DNA from: Trueperaceae bacterium
Lineage (GTDB): Bacteria > Deinococcota > Deinococci > Deinococcales > Trueperaceae
DNA: 64,000 nt
Direction: 5' to 3'
NCBI GenBank assembly: GCA_965223585.1
Contig: CBDCWW010000010.1
Location: 55,165 to 119,164, forward strand
In this document: in pieces, positions 2,091 to 58,520 of the stretch
Numbering within the stretch: the stretch's first letter is position 1
Layout: each line of letters opens with the position of its first letter
Translations under genes and position numbers: made by a program
The notes under the pieces: model-generated
Seen by the model: only the letters and a program-made list of their open reading frames with translations
Database searches by the model: none
What the model was told of the DNA's origin: nothing

Positions 2091-2435
2091 GTGCACCTAC
2101 TAACGGAAAAAGATATTTCTTTTCATTTGAGAAACGTGTTTAAGCGGTGACATGAAGACTGAGTGGCTTGAATTAAAGCTTATAAGCAGGAGTGTAAAAG
2201 TTTTTGTGAATAACTCAGGAGTAATCAGTGCCTATAGGTAGTTAGTAACCAGAAGTCAGTAGCCAGCATAGTAAATCCCTACTGACTACCAGCTACTGGA
2301 TTCTAGCTACTACTTTAAATTCCAAACGGAAATTCATAAGTATTTATGCATGGATCCTTATTGGAACAGTAACAAGCTTATTCTTGACATGAAACAGAGG
2401 CTCAAAAAAAGTTAGAATCAGCAAAGGAGAAATCG

Positions 2436-2840
2436 ATGAGAAAAAAAGTAGGTTTGTGGATTGATCATAGAGAAGCTATTATTGTGGCTATTACAGACAA
2501 AGGAGAAGAAATAAAGCTGATACCATCGGAGGTTGAAAGTCAGCCCCGCCGTTCTGGTGATTCACCTCTTAAAGGTCCTTATGATGTACAGCAGGTACCA
2601 GCAGATAGTAGACGCCTTAGAGCATTTACGGAACATCTCAATGGTTACTATGATTCAGTAATTGCATCTATTGGTGATGCAAAATCAATTCTAATATTTG
2701 GTCCGGGTGAGGCAAAGACCGAGTTAAAAAAACGCCTTGAAAAAAACCACCTTGGTGAGAACATTGTAGGCGTTGAAACAGCCGACAAGATGACAGATAA
2801 TCAGATAGCAGCGAAAGTTCGACAACACTTTGCTAAGTAG
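2436..2840 (+). CDS. Hypothetical protein; possible mini eRF1/Pelota-like fold (tentative)
   Basis: 134-aa ORF with an AAAGGAG SD upstream of the ATG. The FGPGEAKTELKKRL motif resembles the GPGxxK element of eRF1/Pelota domains, which is a weak basis. Confidence 0.45.
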   Translation: MRKKVGLWIDHREAIIVAITDKGEEIKLIPSEVESQPRRSGDSPLKGPYDVQQVPADSRRLRAFTEHLNGYYDSVIASIGDAKSILIFGPGEAKTELKKRLEKNHLGENIVGVETADKMTDNQIAAKVRQHFAK

Positions 2841-2859
2841 GAGTATAGCTGTTATATAG

Positions 2860-3005
2860 TACTTCAGAAAATTTTTTCTCTAGGGAAAACCCCCTCTGTG
2901 AGCATGTCATTCTGAGGAGTATAACCCTTACGAGGGTAAACTTGAAGAATCTCTAAGGGCATTAACGCATGGGAGATCCTTCGCTGCGCTCAGGATGACA
3001 TTCCT
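2860..3005 (+). repeat. MITE/REP-like long-hairpin repeat, copy A (complete)
   Basis: GTCATTCTGAGGAG ... GAAGAATCTCTAAGGGCATTAACGCATGGGAGATCCTTCGCTGCGCTCAGGATGAC, with arms that are inverted repeats. Related copies lie at 35503-35665 (inverted) and 62841-62965. Confidence 0.7.
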
Positions 3006-3074
3006 TGCGTTGATAAAGAAAATATTTATATGGACATCCATAACAACACAGTCTCGTAATGCTCTGAGATAGTA

Positions 3075-4118
3075 TTACTTGGTTAGTGCTAGTGATTGTC
3101 TTGTCTTTCTGTAAAGTAACCAAGTAGACAATGGCCCTAAAGCAAAGTTTATGTAGTAGGTTAACAGCCTCCATAAAAGTATAGGACTTGCCAATAGTAT
3201 TGCCTCAACTTGCCTTGTCCTAAGACTCCAACCAATGGCTATCTCTACAAAACCCGAACCACCGGGGGTAGGCATGATGCTGCTTAGTAGATTGATAATG
3301 TTCAATGAAGTAAGGATGTTAAGCAGTAAAGTGTGAACATCAAAGAGGACAAGTAATCCCCAAAGTAAGGTTGAGCGTGACAGCCATCCCAGCATTGTGA
3401 GTAGCTGAAGGCTAAGGCGTTGGAGTACAGATATATCACTAAAACGGGTTACGCTTTGTTGATAGTCTCGAGCAATATGTAAAGTGCGCTTCTCAAAATG
3501 CTTAGTCAAAGCTCTGAACAACGGCAAATTACCAAAGCGTGATAGCAAAGGCCTACTCAGCTTCAGTAAAAAGCTTAGTGTTATACCTAGAAGAAATAAC
3601 AAGATGCTTAGTGCAAGCACTAAGTATGAGACAGTGGGTGGCAAACTAAGCATCCCTGTACTGAAAACATAAAGGACGCTGAGGGGTACTAGAAATGCGA
3701 AATAAGCGAGATCAAGTAATATTAGCTGTGCCACAAGGCCAATTCCAGCTCCTAAAGGTAGACCCAACTTTTGCAGTGCAAGGATAAGTACTGGAACACC
3801 ACCCAGCTTGCCCGGCATTATCAAAGCTCCAAAGTTAGTTGAAAGCTGAACCATGAAACTTGTTAAAATAGATAGTTGAAGACCTTGATAGGCACAAAGG
3901 AGCTTGAGGCGCAATACAGGAAAAAACCAATAGGTTAAGAGTATAATGAGACAGAAAGCAATTATGCTAGGCTCGAGATTCCTAAGGTGATAGGTCTCAG
4001 CAGAAAGCAGTGCTGGACCCACCAACCAGTATAAAGCTAGCAACCCCAAACCAAAACTAAGACTTAGCACAGTAAGACTTCGCCACAAAGCTTTGTGGCT
4101 TAAAAGTTTGCTAATCAT
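3075..4118 (-). CDS. Polytopic membrane protein, UPF0104 / lysyl-PG synthase TM-region-like (flippase-like) family
   Basis: 347 aa with multiple TM segments. PGKLGGVPVLILALQKLGLPLGAG...LLD resembles the conserved P..GG...L...G motif of this family. Confidence 0.5.
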   Translation of the reverse strand: MISKLLSHKALWRSLTVLSLSFGLGLLALYWLVGPALLSAETYHLRNLEPSIIAFCLIILLTYWFFPVLRLKLLCAYQGLQLSILTSFMVQLSTNFGALIMPGKLGGVPVLILALQKLGLPLGAGIGLVAQLILLDLAYFAFLVPLSVLYVFSTGMLSLPPTVSYLVLALSILLFLLGITLSFLLKLSRPLLSRFGNLPLFRALTKHFEKRTLHIARDYQQSVTRFSDISVLQRLSLQLLTMLGWLSRSTLLWGLLVLFDVHTLLLNILTSLNIINLLSSIMPTPGGSGFVEIAIGWSLRTRQVEAILLASPILLWRLLTYYINFALGPLSTWLLYRKTRQSLALTK

Positions 4119-4868: not shown

Positions 4869-5005
4869 ATTGTCAGAAAAAGTCCTACATAGCTTGTCAG
4901 AGTTTTACTGACTAGTTAGAAAAAGTGATCAACTAAACTAGAGTAGCCAGTAGTTCTAGGGGGCAAATGCTTTTAAATCTACTAATTTAAACAAGGAGGA
5001 AACTC
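4869..5005 (+). promoter_or_regulatory. Dispersed upstream cassette, copy 1 (upstream of the PAN-domain gene)
   Basis: TTGTCAGAAAAAGTCCTACATAGCTTGTCAGAGTTTTACTGACTAGT...CTAGAG..TTCTAG...TTTTAAATCT..AAGGAGG then ATG. It shares all blocks with seven other copies. Confidence 0.7.
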
Positions 5006-5608
5006 ATGAATAAATTAAATGGTAAAACCAAAACCTTAAGCATTCTCTCTATTCTATTATTTTGTTTCTTGGCCACAATAGCATATGGTCAAGAATTTAA
5101 ACTCCCTCGAGGTGGAGAACCCATGAGCAATATTGATCTTCCGGGATCAGATATTGCCCACTTCATATGGGGTGCTCCTGCAGCAGGAATGTTGGATCTT
5201 CGACAAAATCAATGTTCTGAAGCCTGTTGGCAAAACAAGGATTGTGTGGCATGGACTTATGTAAGGCCTAACACAATCCAAGGCCCAGAGGGTAACTGCT
5301 GGCTAAAAAACAGTGTGCCAGAAAAGGTAGTTAACAATTGTTGCGTATCTGGTACGATAGGTGAAGCAAACACAGATAGACTAGGTGGCGATTACACTCA
5401 TTTTGACAATATTATGGGGCTTGATGTAACTCCTCAGCTTTGCCAAACAACCTGTCAAAACGAGACTCAATGCAAAGCATGGACGTTTGTAAAACCGAAC
5501 ACAATCCAAGGTCCCAAAGGCGTGTGTTGGCTAAAAGACACTATACCACCACCAGTAGAGAGTAATTGCTGCATATCTGGTTATTTCGAAATACAGATCA
5601 TTAGATAA
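5006..5608 (+). CDS. Secreted protein with two PAN/Apple-like (PAN_4-type) domains
   Basis: Signal peptide present. Two repeats of C..C...C.AWT(Y/F)V.PNTIQGP.G.CWLK....CC(V/I)SG. Confidence 0.65.
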   Translation: MNKLNGKTKTLSILSILLFCFLATIAYGQEFKLPRGGEPMSNIDLPGSDIAHFIWGAPAAGMLDLRQNQCSEACWQNKDCVAWTYVRPNTIQGPEGNCWLKNSVPEKVVNNCCVSGTIGEANTDRLGGDYTHFDNIMGLDVTPQLCQTTCQNETQCKAWTFVKPNTIQGPKGVCWLKDTIPPPVESNCCISGYFEIQIIR

Positions 5609-26096: not shown

Positions 26097-26579
26097 ATGA
26101 CGAATCTCATGCTCTGGCTGATGCGTGGCTTGGCAGTTGGACACCTCGCTTGTGGCTTAATTTTTGTTCTTGTCGCCTTGCACATCATACGCTCGTCCTT
26201 TGCTGTCCTAACCTACATGTCGACTGGCACTGTCTGGTCCAACTTGTCTATGACGATATTCCTAACCATACAACATTCCTTGCCCTTTGTGCTGCTTGGC
26301 GGGTGGATGCTCATCCTCGGCAACCGTATCTGGAAAGGTACTCGCCCTGTTCGCACAATACTTCTTGTGACCCATGGCATCCTGCTCGTGATTGGCAGTC
26401 TTTCCGTCGTAATTGGCGTCTACGCTGTGCGCGGTGCCGAGATCAGCATAGCTCGGGGTGGCGGTCTCCTCAGCCCCCTTGCTTGGGTGCCGCTAATCTT
26501 CGGCATTGTCCTAGTAACCTTGGCCTTGCCCTCTATAGTCCTCGCTTTATACAGCAAAGTCCTTGCCTCCTGCGATTAG
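26097..26579 (+). CDS. Hypothetical 4-TM membrane protein (GC-rich patch)
   Basis: 160-aa hydrophobic ORF, preferred over the overlapping Arg/Cys/His-rich frame at 26150..26665. Confidence 0.45.
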   Translation: MTNLMLWLMRGLAVGHLACGLIFVLVALHIIRSSFAVLTYMSTGTVWSNLSMTIFLTIQHSLPFVLLGGWMLILGNRIWKGTRPVRTILLVTHGILLVIGSLSVVIGVYAVRGAEISIARGGGLLSPLAWVPLIFGIVLVTLALPSIVLALYSKVLASCD

Positions 26580-26863
26580 GCTTAATTGTCATAAACATTG
26601 CTTTGACCGGATACTTCACTACTTTGCAATTGCTTAATTGTGTCCTTAACGAGGTTAAATTTTAGTTCAAACTCTTATTTAATACGTTCATTTTGCTTTC
26701 TCTCATCATACTGGAGCTTTTCTTTAAAAAAGGGCAAGCTGTGTAAAGTGGATTGACATTCATTAGGGAGTTCACCTTCTTCGTCAAATCTTGATAAAGC
26801 TATAGGATAGTTTCGCTTAAAAAAACGGTGCTAGAGCTTTTTTTGAAGTGTTATACTGTGAGC

Positions 26864-27601
26864 ATGAATAAGTATCTAACAGGAGCTGTTTTGCTTATCG
26901 CTATCGTAGGGGTTGGAAGTTATTTGATGTATAGGTCTGCGTCTATAGTGCGTGGGTCTGGCAACATTATAACTGAAGCTCGAGATGTTGCAGGCTTCAA
27001 TCGGATTGAGTTAAGTGGCAGAGGAAACTTGCTCATTGATCAATCTGGGGACGAATCATTAAATATTGAGGCTGAGGATAATATAATCGATAGAATTGAA
27101 ACAGTAGTTGAGGGCAACACTCTTAAGATTCGATTTAAGAGGGAGTGGTCGATTCGACAACTCTGGCCAACTAAAGACATAAATTATCATCTTACTGTCG
27201 CTGACATAGAGCATATTGGTATTTCTGGCTCTGGCTATATTGAGACGGAGAATATCTCTACAGACGAACTAACAATTGGCATTAACGGTTCAGGCAAGGG
27301 TTCTTTGGGTGTAAGCGTAAAGAAGCTTGATCTCAATGTATCTGGCTCGGGAAGGTTTGTATTTAAAGGAACAGCAGAAGAACAAAAAGTTAATATAAAT
27401 GGTTCTGGTAACTATGATGCAAAGGATCTTGCCTCAAAGAAAGCTGAATTTCGCACCAGTGGTTCCGGTAAGGGAATTATAAACGCATCTGATGAATTGA
27501 GTGTAAATATCAGTGGAAGCGGGAATGTACGATACATCGGTTCGCCTGTCATTAGCCAAAAAATTTCTGGCTCTGGCAGCATCTCTCAATACAAAGAGTA
27601 A
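26864..27601 (+). CDS. DUF2807 / head GIN-domain (putative adhesin head) protein
   Basis: N-terminal TM segment followed by repeated GSG(N/K/R) strand pattern (SGSGxxxxxG). Start taken as the ATG at 26864. Confidence 0.55.
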   Translation: MNKYLTGAVLLIAIVGVGSYLMYRSASIVRGSGNIITEARDVAGFNRIELSGRGNLLIDQSGDESLNIEAEDNIIDRIETVVEGNTLKIRFKREWSIRQLWPTKDINYHLTVADIEHIGISGSGYIETENISTDELTIGINGSGKGSLGVSVKKLDLNVSGSGRFVFKGTAEEQKVNINGSGNYDAKDLASKKAEFRTSGSGKGIINASDELSVNISGSGNVRYIGSPVISQKISGSGSISQYKE

Positions 27602-27613
27602 AAACCACCTAAA

Positions 27614-27800
27614 ATGGTCTATATAAAAAATGCGCCTGACTAATCAGGCGCTAAAGGGGGTAAAAGGGGGGCAATGCTAGATGCTCTAGTATATTAGCAC
27701 TCAAGTAACTTGATGTCAAGCCTGTAGGATTATGGCCTTAGAGATGCTAGCAAAGCGTTTATTGGTTTATTCTAAATAGTGTTAGTGCCCTCCATGAAAC
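27614..27800. repeat. ~190-bp direct repeat R1, copy 1 (contains sRNA candidate 1)
   Basis: Aligns with 28294-28490. About 80 nt are near-identical and the distal part is diverged. Confidence 0.75.
27625..27685 (-). ncRNA. Candidate small RNA, copy 1 (C-rich body plus intrinsic terminator)
   Basis: On the minus strand: TTGACA (27719-27714), a 17-nt spacer, TAATAT (27696-27691), then ..AGCATCTAGCATTGCCCCCCTTTTACCCCCTTTA, then GCGCCTGA-TTAG-TCAGGCGC (27651-27632) followed by T6. Confidence 0.55.
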
Positions 27801-27878
27801 TTTATTGAGTACCTATGACCACTGCCAACTGTTATAACGTCAAGTTGATTAACCCAATCTGGTACGGCGTCAAGATTC

Positions 27879-28124
27879 CTAATCGTTGGAATTAGCATTA
27901 GAGTCATTAACAGCTTTTTTCTCTGCTAGTGGTGGCTGCGGTACAATCAACATTGCTATCACATATGCGATTACACCGGGTGCCACACCAGTAAAAAGCG
28001 TCAAAAATACATAGGCCAAGCGCAAAATCGTTGGGTCTACTCCAGCATACTCACCCAATCCCCCAAGCACTCCAGCAAATACACTATTGTCACGACTTTT
28101 GTAAAGTTTTTTTTCTATATCCAT
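27879..28124 (-). CDS. pspC: PspC-domain membrane protein
   Basis: LYKSRDNSVFAGVLGGLGEYAGVDPTILRLAYV is the canonical PspC domain, followed by one TM segment. Confidence 0.8.
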   Translation of the reverse strand: MDIEKKLYKSRDNSVFAGVLGGLGEYAGVDPTILRLAYVFLTLFTGVAPGVIAYVIAMLIVPQPPLAEKKAVNDSNANSND

Positions 28125-28207
28125 ACGGTCTATTTTAACATTTCAAGCAAAGTGTATTATCAGGTTGTGTTTTTGTTTTGTGATTAACAATGGTGAAGGC
28201 ATTGATG
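28123..28207. repeat. ~85-bp dispersed repeat R2, copy 1 (immediately upstream of the pspC start)
   Basis: ATACGGTCTATTTTAACATTTCAAGCAAAGTGTATTATCAGGTTGTG...GTGATTAACAA matches 52602-52686 with about 8 mismatches. Confidence 0.7.
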
Positions 28208-28293
28208 GTTAAGTAGAAGAACCAAGAAGAAGGTAGTCTGGCTTTTGCTCTCAAAGGTGCAGTGTTGATAAATAACTGGCGGAGATAGTCTAT

Positions 28294-28490
28294 CTAAAAA
28301 AATGCGCCTGACTAATCAGGCGCTAAAGGGGGTAAAAGGGGGGCAATGCTAGATGCTCTAACATGTTAGCACTCAGATAATCTTATGTCAAGTCTATAAG
28401 ATTATAAGATGATGAGATTAGGGATACTAACAAAGTACTTATCAGTTTATCCAAAATTACATTAGTACCACCTATGAAAGCGATTTTTCT
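28294..28490. repeat. ~190-bp direct repeat R1, copy 2
   Basis: See 27614-27800. Confidence 0.75.
28296..28357 (-). ncRNA. Candidate small RNA, copy 2
   Basis: On the minus strand: TTGACA (28391-28386), a 17-nt spacer, TAACAT (28368-28363), a body identical to copy 1, the hairpin at 28323-28304, and T7. No minus-strand gene lies upstream that would need this terminator. Confidence 0.55.
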
Positions 28491-28730
28491 GTAATAGAAA
28501 TTGATCAGTCACAGGATGCAGTAGGGTCAGGCAAAAGTATAGAATAGTTAACAGTGTACTGCTAGCTCGCTGAAAAAGACTCAATCTGCTTGAAAATGAC
28601 ACTTTCGAGGCCAAACAAAGTCTTACTGAAATGCGAGTCATGTCTTTGCTGAAAGAAGATTACCCAAAGTATTTTTTAAGTAGTGGACGGAACAGCATAA
28701 GACAAAGACTTAGTAGAAAGCAGGTGAACC

Positions 28731-29957
28731 GTGAATACGTCTATATCTAAACTAGCTTGGCGCAATTTGTGGCGGCATAAACGTCGTACCCAGCTTTTAT
28801 TAGCTGTAGTAGCCTATGCAACCATTGCCATTATTTTCTTTTGGGGTTTTTATGATGGTTTTATAAATACTCTTTTAAGTGGTCAAGCTCGCTACTTAAG
28901 TGCTCCCATTATGGTGCAAACCGAAGCCCACTATCAAGACCCTGATCCTGAGAATAGTTTATTGGCACTTGATTTTAAGGATATACTGGTAAATTTTGAA
29001 AATGTGAAAGGAGCTGCTCCCAGACTTGAATTTCCTGCACTCATACGTTCACCATATCGCGCTATGGGTGCACAGGTACGTGGCATTGATCCTAGCCTCG
29101 AGCCCCAAGTAAGTGCTCTACCTGAAAATATTAGTGAAGGGCGGTTACTTGCAGCCCCCGGTGAACTTGTTATAGGTATAGGCCTTGCTGAAGAGGTTGA
29201 CGTGCGTGTGGGTGAGCGACTTGCACTAGACGTACAATCCTTGGCTGGCTCTCAGGGCATAGGCTTACGAGTGCTTGGGCTTATTAGAAGCAATATCAAG
29301 GTTGTAGACGACACAATAGTACTAATTCATCTTGAGGATGCTCGCAGTTTAACAGGAGTAGAAACTGCCACAAGTTTAGCACTTGATGTCAATCAAGGTG
29401 ATGAAAAAGCAGTTGCCAAGGCTCTTAACAATTCATCTATATTACCCCAAGGCGTTTTGGCCTATAGTATTTCCGACCTGCTTAGTGGAATTATGGCAGG
29501 TATTGAGACCAAGCGGCTGTCAATGATACCTATTGTTGTCCTTATAGCTATCTTTGCAGCAATCACAGTAATGAGTACTGTGGTTGTAAGTGTGATTGAG
29601 CGTACTAGGGAGTTTGGTGTTATTACCTCATTAGGATTGTATCAAGGACAAATTGCACGTATGGTGACTCTAGAAGCTACTTACACCACCTTGCTAGGGT
29701 TTTTAATTGGTGGAGTTTTAGGTTATGGACTTAATTGGATTTTCAGTGCTTTTAATATTATGGGACCGCTTATTAAGAGCTATTACGGTCGAATGTTGCA
29801 AGGTCTTGCCCTAAGTGATCATTTCATTTTAGCAGCTCAGCTAAGTTACCTTGCTTGGGCAGCTATAACCATCATTATTGCAGCAGTACTAGCAATTGGT
29901 GTGCCGGGACGGCGTGTAAGGAACCTTAACCCTTCAGAAGCAATGAGAGCGACTTAG
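28731..29957 (+). CDS. FtsX-family ABC permease, type A paralog
   Basis: GTG start, LAWRNLWRHKRRT, C-terminal ERTREFGVITSLG plus 3 TM segments. Confidence 0.8.
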   Translation: MNTSISKLAWRNLWRHKRRTQLLLAVVAYATIAIIFFWGFYDGFINTLLSGQARYLSAPIMVQTEAHYQDPDPENSLLALDFKDILVNFENVKGAAPRLEFPALIRSPYRAMGAQVRGIDPSLEPQVSALPENISEGRLLAAPGELVIGIGLAEEVDVRVGERLALDVQSLAGSQGIGLRVLGLIRSNIKVVDDTIVLIHLEDARSLTGVETATSLALDVNQGDEKAVAKALNNSSILPQGVLAYSISDLLSGIMAGIETKRLSMIPIVVLIAIFAAITVMSTVVVSVIERTREFGVITSLGLYQGQIARMVTLEATYTTLLGFLIGGVLGYGLNWIFSAFNIMGPLIKSYYGRMLQGLALSDHFILAAQLSYLAWAAITIIIAAVLAIGVPGRRVRNLNPSEAMRAT

Positions 29958-30073
29958 CAAGAGTCAGCTAGTGGAAGGAAATTATTCTAAATTTGAACTG
30001 CCGATTTCTAGAAAGGAATAATCATGCAACAAATTCAATTAGCAACTAAGCCACTCATTTGGGGAAAAAGTAA

Positions 30074-31300
30074 ATGTTAGCTCTAGCTTGGCGAAACCTA
30101 TGGCGACAAGGACGGCGTAGCCTTATCACCCTTTCAGCTGTAGCAATTGTTGTCTTTATGGCAATTATGATTTATAGTCTTGGTGGTGCAATTAAGAATA
30201 GCCTTTATCAAGATTTAACTGAGCAGGTTGGTCATATTCAAATCCATGCTGCCGATTATCGTGATGCTCGAGACTTTAGTGCAGGATTACTATATAATGC
30301 TACTGACTTACGTGCTAGCGTTGAGAAGGTTGCTCCTGATGCTGTAGTGGTCGGCTCGCTACAGATTCCTGCGCTCTTAGCAGGTGAAGACCGTTCACGT
30401 GGCCTAGCCATAAGTGGGCAGGATTGGCCTGACATTTTACGGGAAGATTTTGTAGCAGATAATCTTGCTGAGGGTAATTTTATTGCTGCTGATGACCTTA
30501 CCAGCATAATGCTGGGTCAATCATTAGCGACTTCGCTTAAGGTTAATCTTGGCGATGAAGTTTATGTTTATGCACCCGAAACTGAGGGTTATGGTGCAGC
30601 AGCTTACACTTTAAGGGGATTACTTGACTTTGATGATCCTAACCAAGAAATCAATGCAGTTTATGTGTCACTCGCCGCTGCTCAAGAACTAGCTGCCCCA
30701 AACGCTGTGAGTCGCCTCGAGCTACACTACCCAACTATAGTTACAGTTGACCAAGATACTCTCACACACGAAGATGCCAATTCCCTCAGTAAAAGCTTGG
30801 GGCAAAATTATGAGATAGAGGTTTGGCAAGAGCTTGACCCCGGTCTAGCAGGAGTACTCAACTTTATTATGCCTATTATGATGGTTATGTCGCTTATTTT
30901 CTTTTTGCTAGCAGGTTTACTGGTTCTAAATACAGTCTACCTTAGTACACTCGAGCGTATACGTGAGTTTGGTGTCATTATCAGCCTTGGTGCACTTGGA
31001 CGACAAGTTATGCAAATGATTACCTTAGAAAGTGTGATTATGTGTGTTACAGGTGCAGCCATTGGTACAACACTTGGCCTAGGATTGATTGCTATGCTTT
31101 CAGATGGTTTTACCTACCCCGGAATGGAGAAATTGTTTGCTGAGGTAGGCATGAATCCTATCATGTACCCAACTATTGAATTGTGGCAAGTACTTTTTGC
31201 AGTAGGTTTTGCTATTGTTACAGCTATCCTTGCTGCCCTATGGCCTGCTTTGTTAGCTGCAAACATCGAGCCTGCAGAGGCAATGCGTTACACCGCATAA
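30074..31300 (+). CDS. FtsX-family ABC permease, type B paralog
   Basis: LAWRNLWRQGRRS, C-terminal ERIREFGVIISLG plus 3 TM segments, ending in PAEAMRYT. Confidence 0.8.
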   Translation: MLALAWRNLWRQGRRSLITLSAVAIVVFMAIMIYSLGGAIKNSLYQDLTEQVGHIQIHAADYRDARDFSAGLLYNATDLRASVEKVAPDAVVVGSLQIPALLAGEDRSRGLAISGQDWPDILREDFVADNLAEGNFIAADDLTSIMLGQSLATSLKVNLGDEVYVYAPETEGYGAAAYTLRGLLDFDDPNQEINAVYVSLAAAQELAAPNAVSRLELHYPTIVTVDQDTLTHEDANSLSKSLGQNYEIEVWQELDPGLAGVLNFIMPIMMVMSLIFFLLAGLLVLNTVYLSTLERIREFGVIISLGALGRQVMQMITLESVIMCVTGAAIGTTLGLGLIAMLSDGFTYPGMEKLFAEVGMNPIMYPTIELWQVLFAVGFAIVTAILAALWPALLAANIEPAEAMRYTA

Positions 31301-31373
31301 AGGAAAAAAGTATTTTAATAGGTCTCTTTGGTTAATCCTTCCTAATTGCCCTTAAGGGAAGAACATTGAAAGT

Positions 31374-31390
31374 CCCCCTTAATAAGGGGG
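31374..31390. repeat. CCCCCTT-AAT-AAGGGGG stem-loop; same family as 37616-37637 in opposite orientation
   Basis: GTCCCCCTTAATAAGGGGGAT here versus ATCCCCCTTTTTAAGGGGGAC at 37616. Confidence 0.45.
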
Positions 31391-31462
31391 ATTTAGGGGG
31401 ATTTCCCCTACAAGCCCGGCCTAATTTAATTCTGCGCTGTAAGTACTATCTGAAAGGAAAAA

Positions 31463-32155
31463 ATGCCTCTCTTTGAAGTTAAAAATCTAAAAAAGGTTTA
31501 CCAAGTAGGCGAAGTTACCACCCAAGCTCTGCAAGGTGTAGATTTGGTTATTGAACCGGGCGAATTTACTGCCCTTTCTGGGCCTTCGGGAAGTGGAAAA
31601 AGTACACTACTACACCTTATGGGTGGACTCAATCATCCAAGTGAGGGTGAGATTTACCTCGAGGGCAAGCGTGTTGACCAGCTTGGTAAAAAAGAAGGTG
31701 CAAAGGTACGCCTTAAGAAACTTGGTTTTGTGTTCCAAGCATTTAACCTCATTCCAGTGTTGACTGCTTTAGAAAATGCTGCTTTTGTGCTCGAGTTACA
31801 AGGAGCTGGGAAAAAGGAACGTGAGGCAAAAGCCCTAGAGTCGCTTAAAGCACTTGGTATGGAAGAATTTGCTAACCGCCGTCCTAATCAACTTTCGGGT
31901 GGGCAGCAACAGCGTGTTGCTTTAGCTCGAGCTTTTGCTGCTGATCCAAAAATCATTCTTGCTGATGAACCTACTGCCAACTTAGATAGTGAAACAGGCA
32001 ATCAACTTATTAAATTGATGAAGCAACTCAACGAGGAAAAAGGTGTAACCTTTGTTTTTTCAACTCACGATCCACGCTTGTTGGAACATGTTAAACGTAT
32101 TGTTAGATTAGAAGATGGCAAGGTTGTAGAGCAGGAAACACCCCTTGCTGCTTAG
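31463..32155 (+). CDS. ABC transporter ATP-binding protein (MacB/LolD-type)
   Basis: [31 protein letters not shown]. Confidence 0.9.
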
Positions 32156-33060: not shown

Positions 33061-33242
33061 AACTACTATGATTAATTTAAATAGAGACTCAAAACTAACA
33101 AGCAAGGAAATTGATATAAAAAATGCAAGAATTATTGAGAACAAACTCAAATGAACTACAAGGCAGAGCAGTCTCTTTTTTTACACTCAAAACTAATGGT
33201 ATTAGCTTTGAAACTCGAGCAAAAACAAGAAAGGAAAACTCT

Positions 33243-34040
33243 ATGAAAACTCAAATACTTTCACGACCCGAAGGCAATCTCGCTTATGACGATACAGGAA
33301 GCACAGGAGAAGTTGTTATTTTAGCCCCCGGTGCAGGCGACATTCGCAGTGAATATCGTTTTTTAGCTCCTAAACTTTCTGAAGCAGGTTATCGTGTAGT
33401 AACATTTGATCTACGTGGTCACGGTGAATCAGACTCTAGCTTTTCAAATTATGGAGTTTCAGATACCGCCAGCGATATTCTTGCACTGATAGATCATTTA
33501 GATGCTGGAGCAGCTACTGTTATTGGTACATCGTTTTCACCTGCAGCAGCACTATGGGCTGCTGCTGAGGCCCCTGAGAAAATCAGGAAGCTTGTTCTTA
33601 TTAGTGCCCACCTTGAGGACTCGAGCCCCTTTCAAAACTTTCTCCTCAATTCCCTGTTGCGTGGCCCTTGGAAAGCACGTCTTTGGGAGATGTTCTATAA
33701 GTCTTGGTATCCAAGTCAAAAGCCTGCTGATATAGAGGCCTACAGTCGTCACCTTAGAGCTAGCATTGCCCCTGCGAACAAAGCGAAAGCTGCAAGAGCA
33801 ACGCTGACAGCCTCAAGGGACGGTCTTGATGAACGACTTGTTAAGGTTAAGTTACCTTCACTTGTCATTATGGGTAGTAAGGACAGCCATTTCAAAAATC
33901 CTGAGGAAGAAGCTGAGTTTATAGCAAGCAAAGTTTCAGATCAAATTCAAATGATAGATGGAGCAGGACACTATCCCCATGCTGAAATGCCTGATAAAGT
34001 AACCCCTTTGATACTCGAGTTCTTAAAAGAGACCAACTGA
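33243..34040 (+). CDS. Alpha/beta hydrolase
   Basis: The ATG at 33243 follows AAGGAAA. Motifs: VILAPGAGD..., nucleophile elbow GTSFS, C-terminal GAGHYPH. Confidence 0.7.
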   Translation: MKTQILSRPEGNLAYDDTGSTGEVVILAPGAGDIRSEYRFLAPKLSEAGYRVVTFDLRGHGESDSSFSNYGVSDTASDILALIDHLDAGAATVIGTSFSPAAALWAAAEAPEKIRKLVLISAHLEDSSPFQNFLLNSLLRGPWKARLWEMFYKSWYPSQKPADIEAYSRHLRASIAPANKAKAARATLTASRDGLDERLVKVKLPSLVIMGSKDSHFKNPEEEAEFIASKVSDQIQMIDGAGHYPHAEMPDKVTPLILEFLKETN

Positions 34041-37200: not shown

Positions 37201-37615
37201 TCCACCAATGATAATGAAGCAGCTATCAGTCCAGATAATTGGATAATTGACCAATCATTGCTTGATCGTCCGGGCAATAAGGAGATCCAATTGGAGCTGT
37301 TCTATTCATATAAAACAAACCTTCCTCTTTACCCTGAATGGCAGGAATATTTCCGCACACACCAGCCCCCTGCATTACTAGTTTGGGGAAAGAATGACTA
37401 CATCTTTCCTGAGGAAGGTGCGCACCCTTATAAGCAGGATCTAAAAAATCTGGATTTCCACATTTTGGATACAGGGCACTTTGCTTTGGAAGAAGATGGC
37501 TATGTGATTGCTGATCTCATTCGGCGTTTTATGCAAAACAATGTAAATGAATAAATTTAGTTGTGTCCTACTGTTACAGTGCAAAGTTTAACGAAACTAA
37601 ATTGCAGGAAAGAAA

Positions 37616-37637
37616 ATCCCCCTTTTTAAGGGGGACT
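37616..37637. terminator. CCCCCTT-TTT-AAGGGGG stem-loop between convergent genes
   Basis: 7-bp GC-rich stem between the 37554 (+) end and the 37776 (-) end. There is no clean T-run, so this is only a tentative terminator. Confidence 0.35.
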
Positions 37638-37719
37638 TTCTGTTTCCCTCTTTAATAAGGGGTGCTAGGGGGAGATTAAGCTAAAGATTTAGTGACATCG
37701 AGGTAAACCCAAAAGTTAC

Positions 37720-40072: not shown

Positions 40073-40191
40073 AGCAGAAGCTAATAAATTTGGTGAGCAA
40101 AGCGTTTGCTACTCAAAACCATTCTAGATGACTGCTTTTGCTAAATAATCAGTAAAATTCTGACAAGCTATGTAGGATTTTTTCTGACATA
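40073..40191 (-). promoter_or_regulatory. Dispersed upstream cassette, copy 2 (minus orientation), cut off from its gene by IS200 copy 2
   Basis: The reverse complement reads TATGTCAGAAAAAATCCTACATAGCTTGTCAGAATTTTACTGATT...CATCTAGAATGG..., running straight into the IS end at 40072. Confidence 0.6.
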
Positions 40192-41655: not shown

Positions 41656-41727
41656 CATAGCTTCGCTTCATACAGGGGGGCAATTGAGTATAGAATTAGC
41701 TTCAGCAAGGCGCAAATAATATTACAG

Positions 41728-41858
41728 TATGTCAGAAAAAGTCCTACATAATGTGTCAGAGTTTTACCGATTAGTCAGGAAGAAGTAATAATCTAGAATA
41801 GAATAGTTCTAGGTAGCAAATGCTTTTAAGCAACTACTCTTTCAAAAGGAGTAAATCC
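41728..41858 (+). promoter_or_regulatory. Dispersed upstream cassette, copy 3
   Basis: TATGTCAGAAAAAGTCCTACATAATGTGTCAGAGTTTTACCGATTAGT..CTAGAATAGAATAGTTCTAGGTAGC..TTTTAAGCAACTACTCTTTCAAAAGGAG, then the GTG at 41859. Confidence 0.7.
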
Positions 41859-42248
41859 GTGAATAAGTTAAGTGGTAAAACTAAACAATTTCTTAAAGAC
41901 TCTCTGGGCTGGGGTTTTATTCTCTGGCTCATCGGCTACGGTCTTGGCATTATTCTTTTCCCAATTGTGCCAATTCCCTTAATTGGCTGGATCATTATGC
42001 CGGTTGGAGTAGCTATAACGCTTTGGGTATTATTTAAGAAAGTAAAAGGAGATTCGTTTCAGTATTTTGCTCTGCTCGCAGTAGTTTGGGTGCTAATAGC
42101 TATTGTTTTTGATTATTTTTTCCTTGTTAAGGCTTTCCAACCAGAAGATGGATACTACAAGCTGGATGTATATCTATATTATGCTTTGACTTTTGTTCTC
42201 CCTCTTGTGGTCGGTTGGTACAAAAAAAGATCTGCAAATGCATCTTAG
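41859..42248 (+). CDS. Hypothetical 4-TM membrane protein
   Basis: The GTG start lies 7 nt after AAAGGAG. The ORF-track ATG at 41820 lies inside the cassette. Confidence 0.5.
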   Translation: MNKLSGKTKQFLKDSLGWGFILWLIGYGLGIILFPIVPIPLIGWIIMPVGVAITLWVLFKKVKGDSFQYFALLAVVWVLIAIVFDYFFLVKAFQPEDGYYKLDVYLYYALTFVLPLVVGWYKKRSANAS

Positions 42249-47068: not shown

Positions 47069-47194
47069 TATGTCAGAAAAAATCCTACATCATTTGTCAG
47101 AGTTTTACTGATTTTCCAGCAAAAAATGATCACCTAGAATAGGATAGCTCTAGGTAGCTTTTAAGCACACTATTCTTTGGAAAGGTGTTTGATA
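47069..47194 (+). promoter_or_regulatory. Dispersed upstream cassette, copy 4
   Basis: TATGTCAGAAAAAATCCTACATCATTTGTCAGAGTTTTACTGATT..CCTAGAATAGGATAGCTCTAGGTAGC TTTTAAGCACACTATTCTTTGGAAAGG, then the ATG at 47195. Confidence 0.7.
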
Positions 47195-47586: not shown

Positions 47587-48399
47587 ATGTCAAGTATGCG
47601 AAAAGTAGTGTTGTTTGTCTTGCTTGCCTATGGTTGGTCATGGTTCTTTTGGATACCATCTGCACTAATGGCTAAAGGACTCTTGGTGCCTACTTCACTC
47701 GAGAGCTTCTTCAACTTCGCCTTTAAATTAGGGGGATGGGGTCCTTTACTGGCTGCTTTTCTTGTGACATATTTGGATTTGAAAAAGGAAGGCGTAATTG
47801 ATCTGCTAAGGCGGGGAGTGAAGTACCGATTTGGATTGATATGGTATCTAGTAGCCCTATTTCTTTTTCCCATCCTTATAGGTGGCTCATTGTTTTTAGC
47901 TGCCCTCACTGGGGAACCTCTGCCTGAGTTGGAAGTGCTTGCTGAGCCAATCACAATTCCCATTTCTTTCCTAGTTGTCTTTTTCATGACGGGCCCATTG
48001 CAGGAAGAGTTTGGTTGGCGTGGATTTGTCCAAGAACGTCTTCAGAGTCGGTGGAATGCCCTCACCACGAGTATAGTTGTTGGTACAATGTGGGGCCTTT
48101 GGCATTTGCCTCTCTTTTTTGTTCCAGAGATGGGGTTCTACTATGAGCGACCGATCTTAGGTTTGATACTGTCAACAATACTTGTGTCAATCCCCATAGC
48201 ATGGATTTACAATAATACTGGTCGAAGTGTTCTGGCTGCTATGTTAATGCATGCTTCATTCAATTGGTCACACTTCCTATTTCCAACTCTTAATTCAGAT
48301 CGAGCAAGTTTGATTTTGTTTTTGCTCGAGGCATTCATAGCAGTGATTATTGTTTTGATTTGGGGTTCTAAGACATTGACTAGGGGACCTCAAAAATAG
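47587..48399 (+). CDS. CPBP family intramembrane metalloprotease
   Basis: QEEFGWRGF, WGLWHLP, MHASFNW motifs. Confidence 0.8.
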   Translation: MSSMRKVVLFVLLAYGWSWFFWIPSALMAKGLLVPTSLESFFNFAFKLGGWGPLLAAFLVTYLDLKKEGVIDLLRRGVKYRFGLIWYLVALFLFPILIGGSLFLAALTGEPLPELEVLAEPITIPISFLVVFFMTGPLQEEFGWRGFVQERLQSRWNALTTSIVVGTMWGLWHLPLFFVPEMGFYYERPILGLILSTILVSIPIAWIYNNTGRSVLAAMLMHASFNWSHFLFPTLNSDRASLILFLLEAFIAVIIVLIWGSKTLTRGPQK

Positions 48400-48402
48400 C
48401 AG

Positions 48403-48533
48403 TATGTCAGAAAAAGTCCTACATAATATGTCAGATTATTACTGACTAGTTGGAAAAAAGTAATCGCTTAGAATAAATAGGATAGCCCTAGGTTTTATCT
48501 TAGTTGCCCACACTCAAATGAAAGGAGTGCTCT
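48403..48533 (+). promoter_or_regulatory. Dispersed upstream cassette, copy 5
   Basis: TATGTCAGAAAAAGTCCTACATAATATGTCAGATTATTACTGACTAGTTGGAAAAAAGTAATCGCTTAGAATAAATAGGATAGCCCTAGG...AAAGGAG, then the ATG at 48534. Confidence 0.7.
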
Positions 48534-48701
48534 ATGAAATCAGAAAATAGCTCAAGACCCATTCGGGTTGACAATCAAACAGGTGGTATTCTTTGGTGCA
48601 TTGGTTGGTTATTCACAATTGCATTTGCAAAGCTTGTTTGGTGGCAAGCTCTCTTGGCAATTGTGATTTGGCCATATTATCTTGGGGTGGCTGTCAGGTA
48701 G
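48534..48701 (+). CDS. Small (55 aa) two-TM membrane peptide; paralog of 58341..58520
   Basis: Hand translation gives MKSENSSRPIRVDNQTGGILWCIGWLFTIAFAKLVWWQALLAIVIWPYYLGVAVR. AAAGGAG SD present. It is below the ORF-track size cutoff. Confidence 0.6.
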   Translation: MKSENSSRPIRVDNQTGGILWCIGWLFTIAFAKLVWWQALLAIVIWPYYLGVAVR

Positions 48702-48736
48702 TAAGCAAATTAGACCTTGATCCATAGCCCCATAAC

Positions 48737-53252: not shown

Positions 53253-53391
53253 AGTATTTTATCCACTCACACTATTTTAAGTGAATTTGCCAGTATAAAA
53301 AGCATTTGTCACTCAAAATTATTCTAGGTGATTACTTTCACTGATTAATCGGTAAAACTCTGACAAGTTATGTAGGACTTTCTCTGACATA
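53253..53391 (-). promoter_or_regulatory. Dispersed upstream cassette, copy 6 (minus orientation)
   Basis: The reverse complement reads TATGTCAGAGAAAGTCCTACATAACTTGTCAGAGTTTTACCGATTAATCAG..CACCTAGAATAA..., then the ATG at 53252. Confidence 0.65.
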
Positions 53392-53572
53392 CCATTAATC
53401 AAGCTTCTATGCAAAAACCTACTGACGTTCATCCTCTTTTAAAGATAAAAAGAAAAATTATAGCATTCTCCTAAACAAACTGGTACAGTTATGGGAAATA
53501 GATTTGTGGAATAGTGTTTTTAGCCCTCTCGCCGCCAGTGTTTTTCTCTTATCAAAGAATATTTAGGAACTG

Positions 53573-56249: not shown

Positions 56250-56379
56250 TATGTCAGGAAAAGTCCTACATAACTTATCAGAGTTTTACCGATTAGCTAG
56301 AAAAAGTGAACAAATAAAATTAAGGTGCTTTAGGCAGCAAGTTTTTTTAAGCACACTACTTCTTTGGAAGGAGAACGTC
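56250..56379 (+). promoter_or_regulatory. Dispersed upstream cassette, copy 7
   Basis: TATGTCAGGAAAAGTCCTACATAACTTATCAGAGTTTTACCGATTAGCTAGAAAAAGTGAAC...TTTTTAAGCACACTACTTCTTTGGAAGGAG, then the ATG at 56380. Confidence 0.7.
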
Positions 56380-58340: not shown

Positions 58341-58520
58341 ATGAAATCAGAAAATAGTTCAAGACCCATTCGAGTCGACAGTCAAACAGGTAGTATTCTT
58401 TGGTTTATTGGTTTGTTATTCACAATTGCATTTGCAAAACTTGTTTGGTGGCAAGCTCTCTTAGCAATTGTGATCTGGCCATATTATCTTGGGGTGGCTG
58501 TCAGGTATAAGGCAAACTAA
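58341..58520 (+). CDS. Small (59 aa) two-TM membrane peptide; paralog of 48534..48701
   Basis: MKSENSSRPIRVDSQTGSILWFIGLLFTIAFAKLVWWQALLAIVIWPYYLGVAVRYKAN. Confidence 0.6.
   Translation: MKSENSSRPIRVDSQTGSILWFIGLLFTIAFAKLVWWQALLAIVIWPYYLGVAVRYKAN

Follow-up and report, generated by a model that had tools for sequence, protein, structure and literature searches.

In the 6C RNA of Actinobacteria (Rfam family RF01066), stretches of six or more C residues, located in the loops of two conserved hairpins, pair with G-rich targets. OmrA/OmrB and PrrF1/PrrF2 are sibling pairs of small RNAs (sRNAs), and RybB is an envelope-stress sRNA with a 5' seed; all of these are proteobacterial and Hfq-dependent. 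Here we describe a short C-rich element that occurs twice on the minus strand of a 64-kb stretch of Trueperaceae bacterium DNA (contig CBDCWW010000010.1, positions 55,165 to 119,164; the whole stretch is termed the window), with one copy on either side of the gene pspC. RsaE/RoxS of the Bacillales has unpaired C-rich regions that pair with Shine-Dalgarno (SD) sequences rich in G (PMC4409812). The LhrC1-5 RNAs of Listeria monocytogenes are multicopy, contain C-rich (UCCC) motifs and are induced by envelope stress via LisRK (PMC4132741), and ncr1241 is an RNA detected between the B. subtilis genes yugI and alaT (PMC2965217).

Judged from their sequence, the two modules most likely encode a small regulatory RNA that has not been catalogued before. 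Each would be a self-contained gene for an RNA of ~60 nt, and we think it probable that they belong to a new family of trans-acting sibling sRNAs in which a C-rich stretch at the 5' end serves as the seed, represented by two copies in the window and three in the metagenome-assembled genome (MAG) CBDDAI01. In the window, transcription would be driven by a near-consensus sigma-70-type promoter with an extended -10 element and begin at the G of GCAUC or an adjacent base, and an intrinsic terminator, formed by an 8-bp GC-rich hairpin and a U-tract, would end the transcript. The predicted product is a single-stranded, C/U-rich 5' tail of 33 nt (GCAUCUAGCAUUGCCCCCCUUUUACCCCCUUUA) followed by the terminator. 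This 33-nt block would serve as a seed that pairs in trans with G-rich RNA, be it a ribosome-binding region (AAAGGGGG or AAGGAGG type) or some other run of G, and such pairing would change the translation or stability of the target. If transcribed, the element is an sRNA family new to Rfam 15 from an uncultured lineage in which we know of no riboregulators, and pairing between a C-rich seed and a G-rich ribosome-binding site would, if true, extend beyond Firmicutes and Actinobacteria. The clean design, an invariant poly-C/U seed on a bare terminator, should make target prediction easy once complete genomes are scanned. The element opens no long-standing question and adds one more well-supported computational sRNA candidate.

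Comparison with described sRNA families

The element would act like RsaE/RoxS, LhrC or 6C but belongs to none of them. With RsaE/RoxS it shares a functional likeness only, that of a short, terminator-ended RNA with several unpaired C-rich regions, and the duplicated CCCCUUUGUU motif of RoxS resembles the CCCCC(C)UUU(U)A duplication found here. The C-runs of RsaE, however, lie in the hairpin loops and linkers of a ~100-nt RNA, whereas those of the present 60-nt RNA make up a linear 5' tail, and the host lineages differ. RsaE/RoxS is regulated by ResDE/SrrAB and has its targets in central metabolism. The preliminary description of this locus, made from the sequence alone, had likened the element to RsaE/RoxS; the unpaired C-runs are borne out by folding, but RF01820 is absent even from the list of matches at E<=10 for 27400-28600, which leaves an analogy only. 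A search of Rfam 15 with the window and six related loci, a check which that description had proposed, gave no family at gathering score for this element, and at E<=10 the interval 27400-28600 returned only chance-level matches (ncr1241, PinT, NmsRb and others). LhrC and 6C likewise gave no match to their Rfam models. Several near-identical copies per genome and C-rich motifs recall LhrC, whose induction by envelope stress is a link of the sort suggested earlier for this locus; the motifs and fold differ, and the envelope link here is one of neighbourhood alone (pspC and one htrA) and is not conserved. The two hairpins that define 6C are not found, the C-runs here lying in an unstructured 5' tail. 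Adjacent near-identical genes, a single-stranded 5' seed and a Rho-independent terminator as the only stable structure are features shared with OmrA/OmrB, PrrF1/PrrF2 and RybB, but the sequences are unrelated and the window copies flank a gene instead of standing in tandem.

The best Rfam match, ncr1241 (RF02451), scored 20.1 and 18.7 bits against a gathering score of 60 (E = 1.5 and 3.1 in a 1.2-kb search) and is not significant. Its model describes an RNA of ~63 nt in which UCUAGUAUUCCCCCCUUAUA, close to UCUAGCAUUGCCCCCCUUUUA here, precedes a terminator, and the two share UCUAG-AUU-CCCCCCUU-UA; the 5' hairpin of the model is not formed here.

Anatomy of the two modules

We scanned 26500-29500 for promoters and terminators and read the minus-strand sequence from 27300 to 28700. 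The modules span 27625-27719 and 28296-28391 (Table 1). A pattern search found a 54-nt core that is identical on the minus strand at 27632-27685 and 28304-28357 (0 mismatches; 0 chance matches in 100 shuffles), and a repeat finder returned 109-nt copies at 27625-27733 and 28297-28405 that are 90% identical and spaced 672 nt apart. These results confirm the anatomy that had been proposed, in which TTGACA, 17 nt and TAATAT or TAACAT precede an identical body, an 8-bp hairpin and a tract of six or seven U. Both copies also have a TG extended -10 element, which had gone unmentioned. The -35 hexamer and the TG are kept between the two promoters, and the -10 hexamers differ at one position. The 17-nt spacers do differ, as had been stated, at 5 of their 17 positions, while the last seven (TGAGTGC) are identical.

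Table 1. Positions of the predicted RNA modules and of neighbouring features in the window
Feature	Position	Strand	Evidence or remark
DUF2807 (head GIN domain) gene, convergent	26828..27601	+	Pfam
~216-nt segment with copy 1, its promoter and upstream region	27624..27839		absent from the DUF2807-pspC spacer of close relative L137
Copy 1, predicted RNA of ~60 nt	27625..27685	-	covariance model R1 (95.4 bits), scan, fold
Copy 1, U6	27625..27630	-	
Copy 1, stem-loop (hairpin 27651..27632)	27632..27651	-	terminator scan
Copy 1, invariant C-rich 5' block	27652..27684	-	
Copy 1, promoter TTGACA-17-TAATAT	27691..27719	-	promoter scan 10/12, TGn extended -10
Copy 1, upstream part of duplicated unit	27720..27800	-	~69% identity to 28392-28475
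pspC, 81-aa PspC-domain membrane protein between the copies	27879..28124	-	Pfam E = 1.6e-21
Weak promoter-like site of pspC itself	28184..28156	-	
3.4-kb segment with copy 2, two FtsX-type permease genes and start of ABC ATPase gene	28157..31530		missing in L137
Copy 2, predicted RNA of ~61 nt	28296..28357	-	covariance model R1 (93.6 bits), scan, fold
Copy 2, U7	28296..28302	-	
Copy 2, stem-loop (hairpin 28323..28304)	28304..28323	-	terminator scan
Copy 2, invariant C-rich 5' block	28324..28356	-	
Copy 2, promoter TTGACA-17-TAACAT	28363..28391	-	promoter scan 10/12, TGn extended -10
Copy 2, upstream part of duplicated unit	28392..28475	-	homologous to 27720-27800

The terminator of both copies is GCGCCTGA-TTAG-TCAGGCGC, with G-C at 6 of its 8 pairs, followed by A+T6 in copy 1 and A+T7 in copy 2; these two hairpins were the only terminator-like sites in the region scanned. 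When the sequence from the predicted start to the U-tract was folded, the hairpin was the sole stable element, with a minimum free energy (MFE) of -17.3 kcal/mol and a z-score of -5.7 relative to shuffled sequences. As described from the outset, both the C6 and the C5 run are unpaired, whether in the MFE structure, the centroid structure or the consensus fold. They belong to a tandem CCCCC(C)UUU(U)A motif, two copies of which make up part of the 5' block.

We infer the start site from two observations that coincide. The positions 6-7 nt past the end of the -10 element (27691 and 28363) are A27685/G27684 in copy 1 and A28357/G28356 in copy 2, and conservation across all five copies from the two genomes begins at exactly that G (G27684/G28356). 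An additional 5' hairpin, CUAGA/UCUAG, is predicted when upstream bases are included in the fold. It was rejected as a part of the RNA, since it is not conserved in the MAG copies and, lying partly upstream of the predicted start, is mostly promoter-proximal DNA.

The two window copies are homologous over roughly 27618-27800 and 28290-28475, a stretch that begins ~85 nt upstream of the -35 hexamer and ends ~12 nt beyond the U-tract; identity is unevenly distributed over this duplicated unit. The body and terminator stem show 55 matches and no mismatch, compared with 52 matches and 23 mismatches in the upstream part, 26 and 8 from promoter to start site, and 21 and 9 in the downstream part. Against the pooled flanks (99 matches and 40 mismatches, ~70% identity) the contrast is significant (Fisher p = 2.8e-7), and it calls for selection or for gene conversion restricted to the transcribed part. 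Together with the three additional copies elsewhere, it supports the earlier suggestion that these are independent sRNA genes under selection for function. The upstream parts of the duplicated unit may hold regulatory sites. Each has a short sequence repeated in tandem ~60-75 nt before the start, which reads AATAAACC-AATAAACG for copy 1 and GATAAACT-GATAAGTA for copy 2 and could be a candidate binding site for a regulator.

Homologous copies in a second genome

We searched a collection holding one genome per GTDB species with the 18-mer TGCCCCCCTTTTACCCCC. Among the 16 loci returned, 13 were chance matches and three (L003, L008 and L012) were true homologues, all from the MAG CBDDAI01. This genome is labelled a Trueperaceae bacterium, its loci have 37-40% GC, and its MetH is nearer to the E. 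coli/human type than to the Thermus type. The host of the window has a GC content of ~39-41% and, judged from its relative, a genome of ~5 Mb, and the named homologues of the window proteins are scattered over many phyla.

The 33-nt 5' block is invariant in all five copies, which share GCATCTAGCATTGCCCCCCTTTTACCCCCTTTA without any change. Upstream of the G and downstream of the U-tract, the flanks of the window and MAG copies could not be aligned. A terminator-like hairpin and T-run follow the block in the same orientation in 5/5 copies, and the hairpins differ in both length and sequence: the window stem is GCGCCUGA/UCAGGCGC, and the MAG stems are of 11 bp (AACGCCUGUUU/AAACAGGCGUU), 10 bp (AGCGCCUGAC/GUCAGGCGUU) and 6 bp (GCGCCC/GGGCGC). 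Yet 97.5% of the cells in the aligned stems are paired, and three pairs have changed on both sides (G-C to A-U, U-A to C-G, and A-U to U-A). In a control in which the 3' partners were slid by 1-3 columns, pairing fell to 28-58%. The observed paired percentage and covariation score were reached by 5/500 shuffles, and the count of pairs changed on both sides by 26/500. A covariance model built from the five copies (model R1) recovers them at 84-95 bits, and no other site in the window or among 16 related loci scores above 17 bits.

The invariant block can also be read directly as a mini-ORF, UUG CCC CCC UUU UAC CCC CUU UAG (M-P-P-F-Y-P-L-stop), whose stop codon abuts the stem. In a ribosome-mediated attenuator of this design, a ribosome at the stop codon would mask the 5' arm and allow read-through, and pausing at Pro-Pro would favour termination. 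A same-strand gene does lie 50-170 nt downstream of 3/5 copies (pspC for copy 2, map for L012 and a CDP-alcohol phosphatidyltransferase gene for L003), and the UAG to UAA substitution in L003 retains the stop. However, the substitution can equally well be one side of a compensated pair in the stem, and the three downstream genes are functionally unrelated, while copy 1 and L008 have no downstream gene. The UUG would be a weak start only 10 nt from the 5' end and has no SD before it, though many genes of this genome have one. Moreover, the five copies show no synonymous differences, which points to constraint at the level of nucleotides over that of a peptide. We regard the attenuator as very improbable.

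Several results weigh against interpreting the modules as genes for a trans-acting sRNA. Our confidence in the sRNA interpretation is not higher mainly because the scan that detected the window promoters found no sigma-70-like promoter at the MAG copies (0/3). By eye, TGtTACTAT stands 7 nt before the G in L008 and TATTAT 9 nt before it in L012, L003 has a poor -10 match, and no -35 hexamer is seen at any of the three. The preliminary description had held that a lack of promoter hexamers at homologous loci would speak against it; the three MAG copies do lack them by the scan, and they are paralogous, not orthologous. Expression of these copies may be weak, may depend on an activator, or may come about through processing of upstream transcripts. 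Only five copies from two genomes are known, and because their seeds are identical, which seed positions matter cannot be learned from them; gene conversion or horizontal transfer could contribute to this identity. A scan of metagenomes with a loose pattern gave at least 120 matches, all due to chance on inspection among the matches listed. The RNA is also dispensable in close relatives, since copies are missing at the orthologous site (see below). Finally, the best duplex between the seed and the 60 translation-initiation regions of the window has -22.2 kcal/mol, against -20.2 +/- 1.7 kcal/mol for shuffled seeds, and 20% of the shuffles match it. Judged by these duplex energies, no significant target was found at the G-rich SD regions where targets had been expected, in a search limited to the 64-kb window that amounts to absence of evidence and not evidence of absence.

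Potential targets in the window

About half of the window genes have a recognisable AGGAG or GGAGG SD, so that pairing between seed and SD is possible. Perfect complements of at least 10 nt occur at nine non-self sites in the window against ~3 expected, which is within the null range, and the pspC, DUF2807 and FtsX genes show no special complementarity to the seed. The best complementary site, GGGGGCAAAUGC at 4959-4971, was rejected, its G-run being lost in the paralogous 5' region at ~41803.

The lack of a convincing mRNA target in the window would also fit an RNA that binds a protein or acts as a sponge, its poly-C/U tract titrating an RNA-binding protein or G-rich RNA. The form would suit this, a terminator hairpin carrying 33 nt of unstructured C/U-rich sequence, and the whole tract is invariant, not merely a short seed. 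However, the target search covered only 64 kb, and the known precedents among C-rich bacterial sRNAs act by base pairing (PMC4409812). We consider titration improbable as the function of this RNA.

Presence and absence among relatives

In a close relative (L137, ~91% nucleotide identity) the DUF2807 gene and pspC are retained, with at least 90% amino acid identity for DUF2807 and 88% for PspC. The gap between the two genes is 63 nt and neither RNA copy is present. Alignment places L137 5616-6467 against window 26786-27628 and L137 6463-6779 against window 27840-28156, so that both the ~216-nt segment with copy 1 and the 3.4-kb segment with copy 2 are missing (Table 1). The absence of 28157-31530 represents a deletion in L137, because the ABC ATPase gene of L137 is truncated. 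As a result of this deletion (L137 6770-6779), the region upstream of pspC runs into the middle of the ABC ATPase gene, of which a 141-aa fragment remains, and an insertion sequence (DDE_Tnp_1) lies nearby.

A second relative with a 5.16-Mb genome (L143), from the same sample, encodes an amylase that is 95% identical to that of the window; its pspC homologue (75% identical) lies beside HSP20, and the RNA is absent there. Neither pspC nor the RNA occurs at the more distant DUF2807 loci L144-L149, model R1 found no copy in L138-L141, and none of the three MAG copies adjoins pspC. Copies appear to be gained and lost quickly between close relatives, and the bracket around pspC is a feature of the window strain and not of the family, since the contexts in L137, L143 and the MAG differ. 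A look for the same module next to pspC in related genomes had been proposed; the pspC loci of L137 and L143 lack it.

Such polymorphism is what a dispersed or mobile non-coding repeat would show. The modules would then be a terminator cassette or the remnant of a small mobile element, one that spreads or is moved about between sites and has no regulatory role as RNA, the promoter being incidental or part of the cassette. The surroundings of two MAG copies fit this as well. A tRNA and a tyrosine integrase lie ~3 kb from the L008 copy, which also has a ParE-like gene in its vicinity and is probably inside an integrated island given this neighbourhood; the L012 copy lies between a transposase-like ORF and the methionine-aminopeptidase gene map. 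The promoterless state of the MAG copies agrees with a repeat, as does the flank ATAGAC(C/T)AT, which follows both window copies and is also present at the empty site in L137. On the other hand, the 216-nt indel and the duplicated unit show neither terminal inverted repeats nor a target-site duplication, the marks of a miniature inverted-repeat transposable element, at their ends, and a search of the 8 kb of L008 gave no attR repeat. Copies are few (two in 64 kb and three with the exact core in a ~4-Mb MAG), viral contigs, plasmids and phages gave no match to the module, and a strict pattern had no matches in metagenomes. A neutral copy would not be expected to stay identical at 55/55 positions while its own flanks diverge by 30%, nor to swap in compensated hairpins while a 33-nt block stays invariant. 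A repeat without RNA function is therefore unlikely in our estimation. The region of L008 at 2152-3764 has the tRNA beside the tyrosine integrase and a gene with a Cro/C1-type helix-turn-helix, with the ParE-like toxin gene further on.

Genes adjoining the copies

Copy 1 and the L003 copy each follow a gene on the same strand. The L003 copy begins 134 nt past the stop codon of an htrA-type protease (Trypsin_2 and PDZ domains) and precedes the CDP-alcohol phosphatidyltransferase gene. The scan found no other terminator between the pspC stop codon and the copy 1 hairpin, or between the htrA stop codon and the L003 hairpin, so the element might be the 3' end of these transcripts in cis. In this case the hairpin would terminate the upstream gene and the C-rich block would be a stability or processing element of the 3' untranslated region (UTR), from which an sRNA might be released. 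As an additional role, copy 1 may be antisense to read-through transcripts of the convergent DUF2807 gene at their 3' end, as the DUF2807 stop codon stands 31 nt before the antisense of copy 1 and the scan found no plus-strand terminator between them. MAG copies without promoters of their own would be accommodated too. However, copy 2, L012 and L008 have no upstream same-strand gene. For copy 2 this had been pointed out before, and we find the same: it lies in a divergent intergenic region with only a 59-aa ORF, without a Pfam match, upstream on the minus strand. Both window copies, moreover, have a near-consensus promoter placed to start transcription where conservation begins. A role confined to the 3' ends of upstream genes therefore seems doubtful at best, and independently transcribed sRNA genes remain our preferred interpretation.

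At two of the four distinct loci the RNA stands after a membrane or envelope-stress gene (pspC or htrA) whose transcript would end at the RNA terminator. As a hint of envelope stress this placement is suggestive but anecdotal, and any link to envelope stress is weak. The order sRNA-pspC-sRNA, from which such a link had been drawn, does not support it, because L137, L143 and the MAG lack the module beside pspC. A more specific proposal is that of an envelope-stress sRNA of an uncultivated low-GC lineage, typically produced, like CpxQ or RybB, at the 3' ends of membrane-stress genes (pspC in the window, htrA for the MAG), with a poly-C 5' seed and a ~200-nt promoter-containing cassette that is gained or lost between strains, one copy apparently riding a tRNA-integrated island. 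Taken as a whole, this proposal is unlikely.

Other repeated elements

A 13-nt fragment of the sRNA body in the same sense (CTAGCATTGCCCC) occurs at 33760-33772 (+) inside an alpha/beta-hydrolase gene (33123-34040); ~0.04 such occurrences are expected by chance in the window. Intergenic hairpins with C5/G5 runs are located at 31370-31410 (CCCCCttaataaGGGGG then atttaGGGGGatttCCCC, before the ABC ATPase gene) and at 37610-37640 (CCCCCtttttaaGGGGG), and these contain the only clustered G5 runs in the untranslated regions of the window, as putative pairing partners of the C-rich RNA.

A gene for a membrane protein of ~55 aa (pattern M-K/N-SENSSRPIRVDNQTG...WWQALLAIVIWPYYLG...) is present in three copies that are 82-85% identical, at window 48528-48710 and 58343-58507 and at L143 9979-10161. 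In L143 it lies directly upstream of the pspC homologue, and a 137-aa gene call there probably fuses the two.

A second conserved non-coding element of ~85 nt, with the hairpin GUAGGGG...CCCCUAC, occurs at L012 540-625 and L143 5215-5305 (~88% identical) but not in the window, and may represent a further small RNA or a repeat common to the lineage.

Comparison with L137 by blastn also revealed a dispersed repeat family of ~100-160 nt at window 4871-5032 and 41726-41860, with further copies at 40100-40191, 47069-47188, 48394-48480, 53298-53392 and 56250-56373. Two of the copies were read and have the conserved upstream regions GTCAGAAAAAGTCCTACATA...TGTCAGAGTTTTAC...GCAAATGCTTTTAA before paralogous genes that start with MNKL(N/S)GKT. 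By its position and sequence, this repeat looks like a shared promoter and 5'-UTR module.

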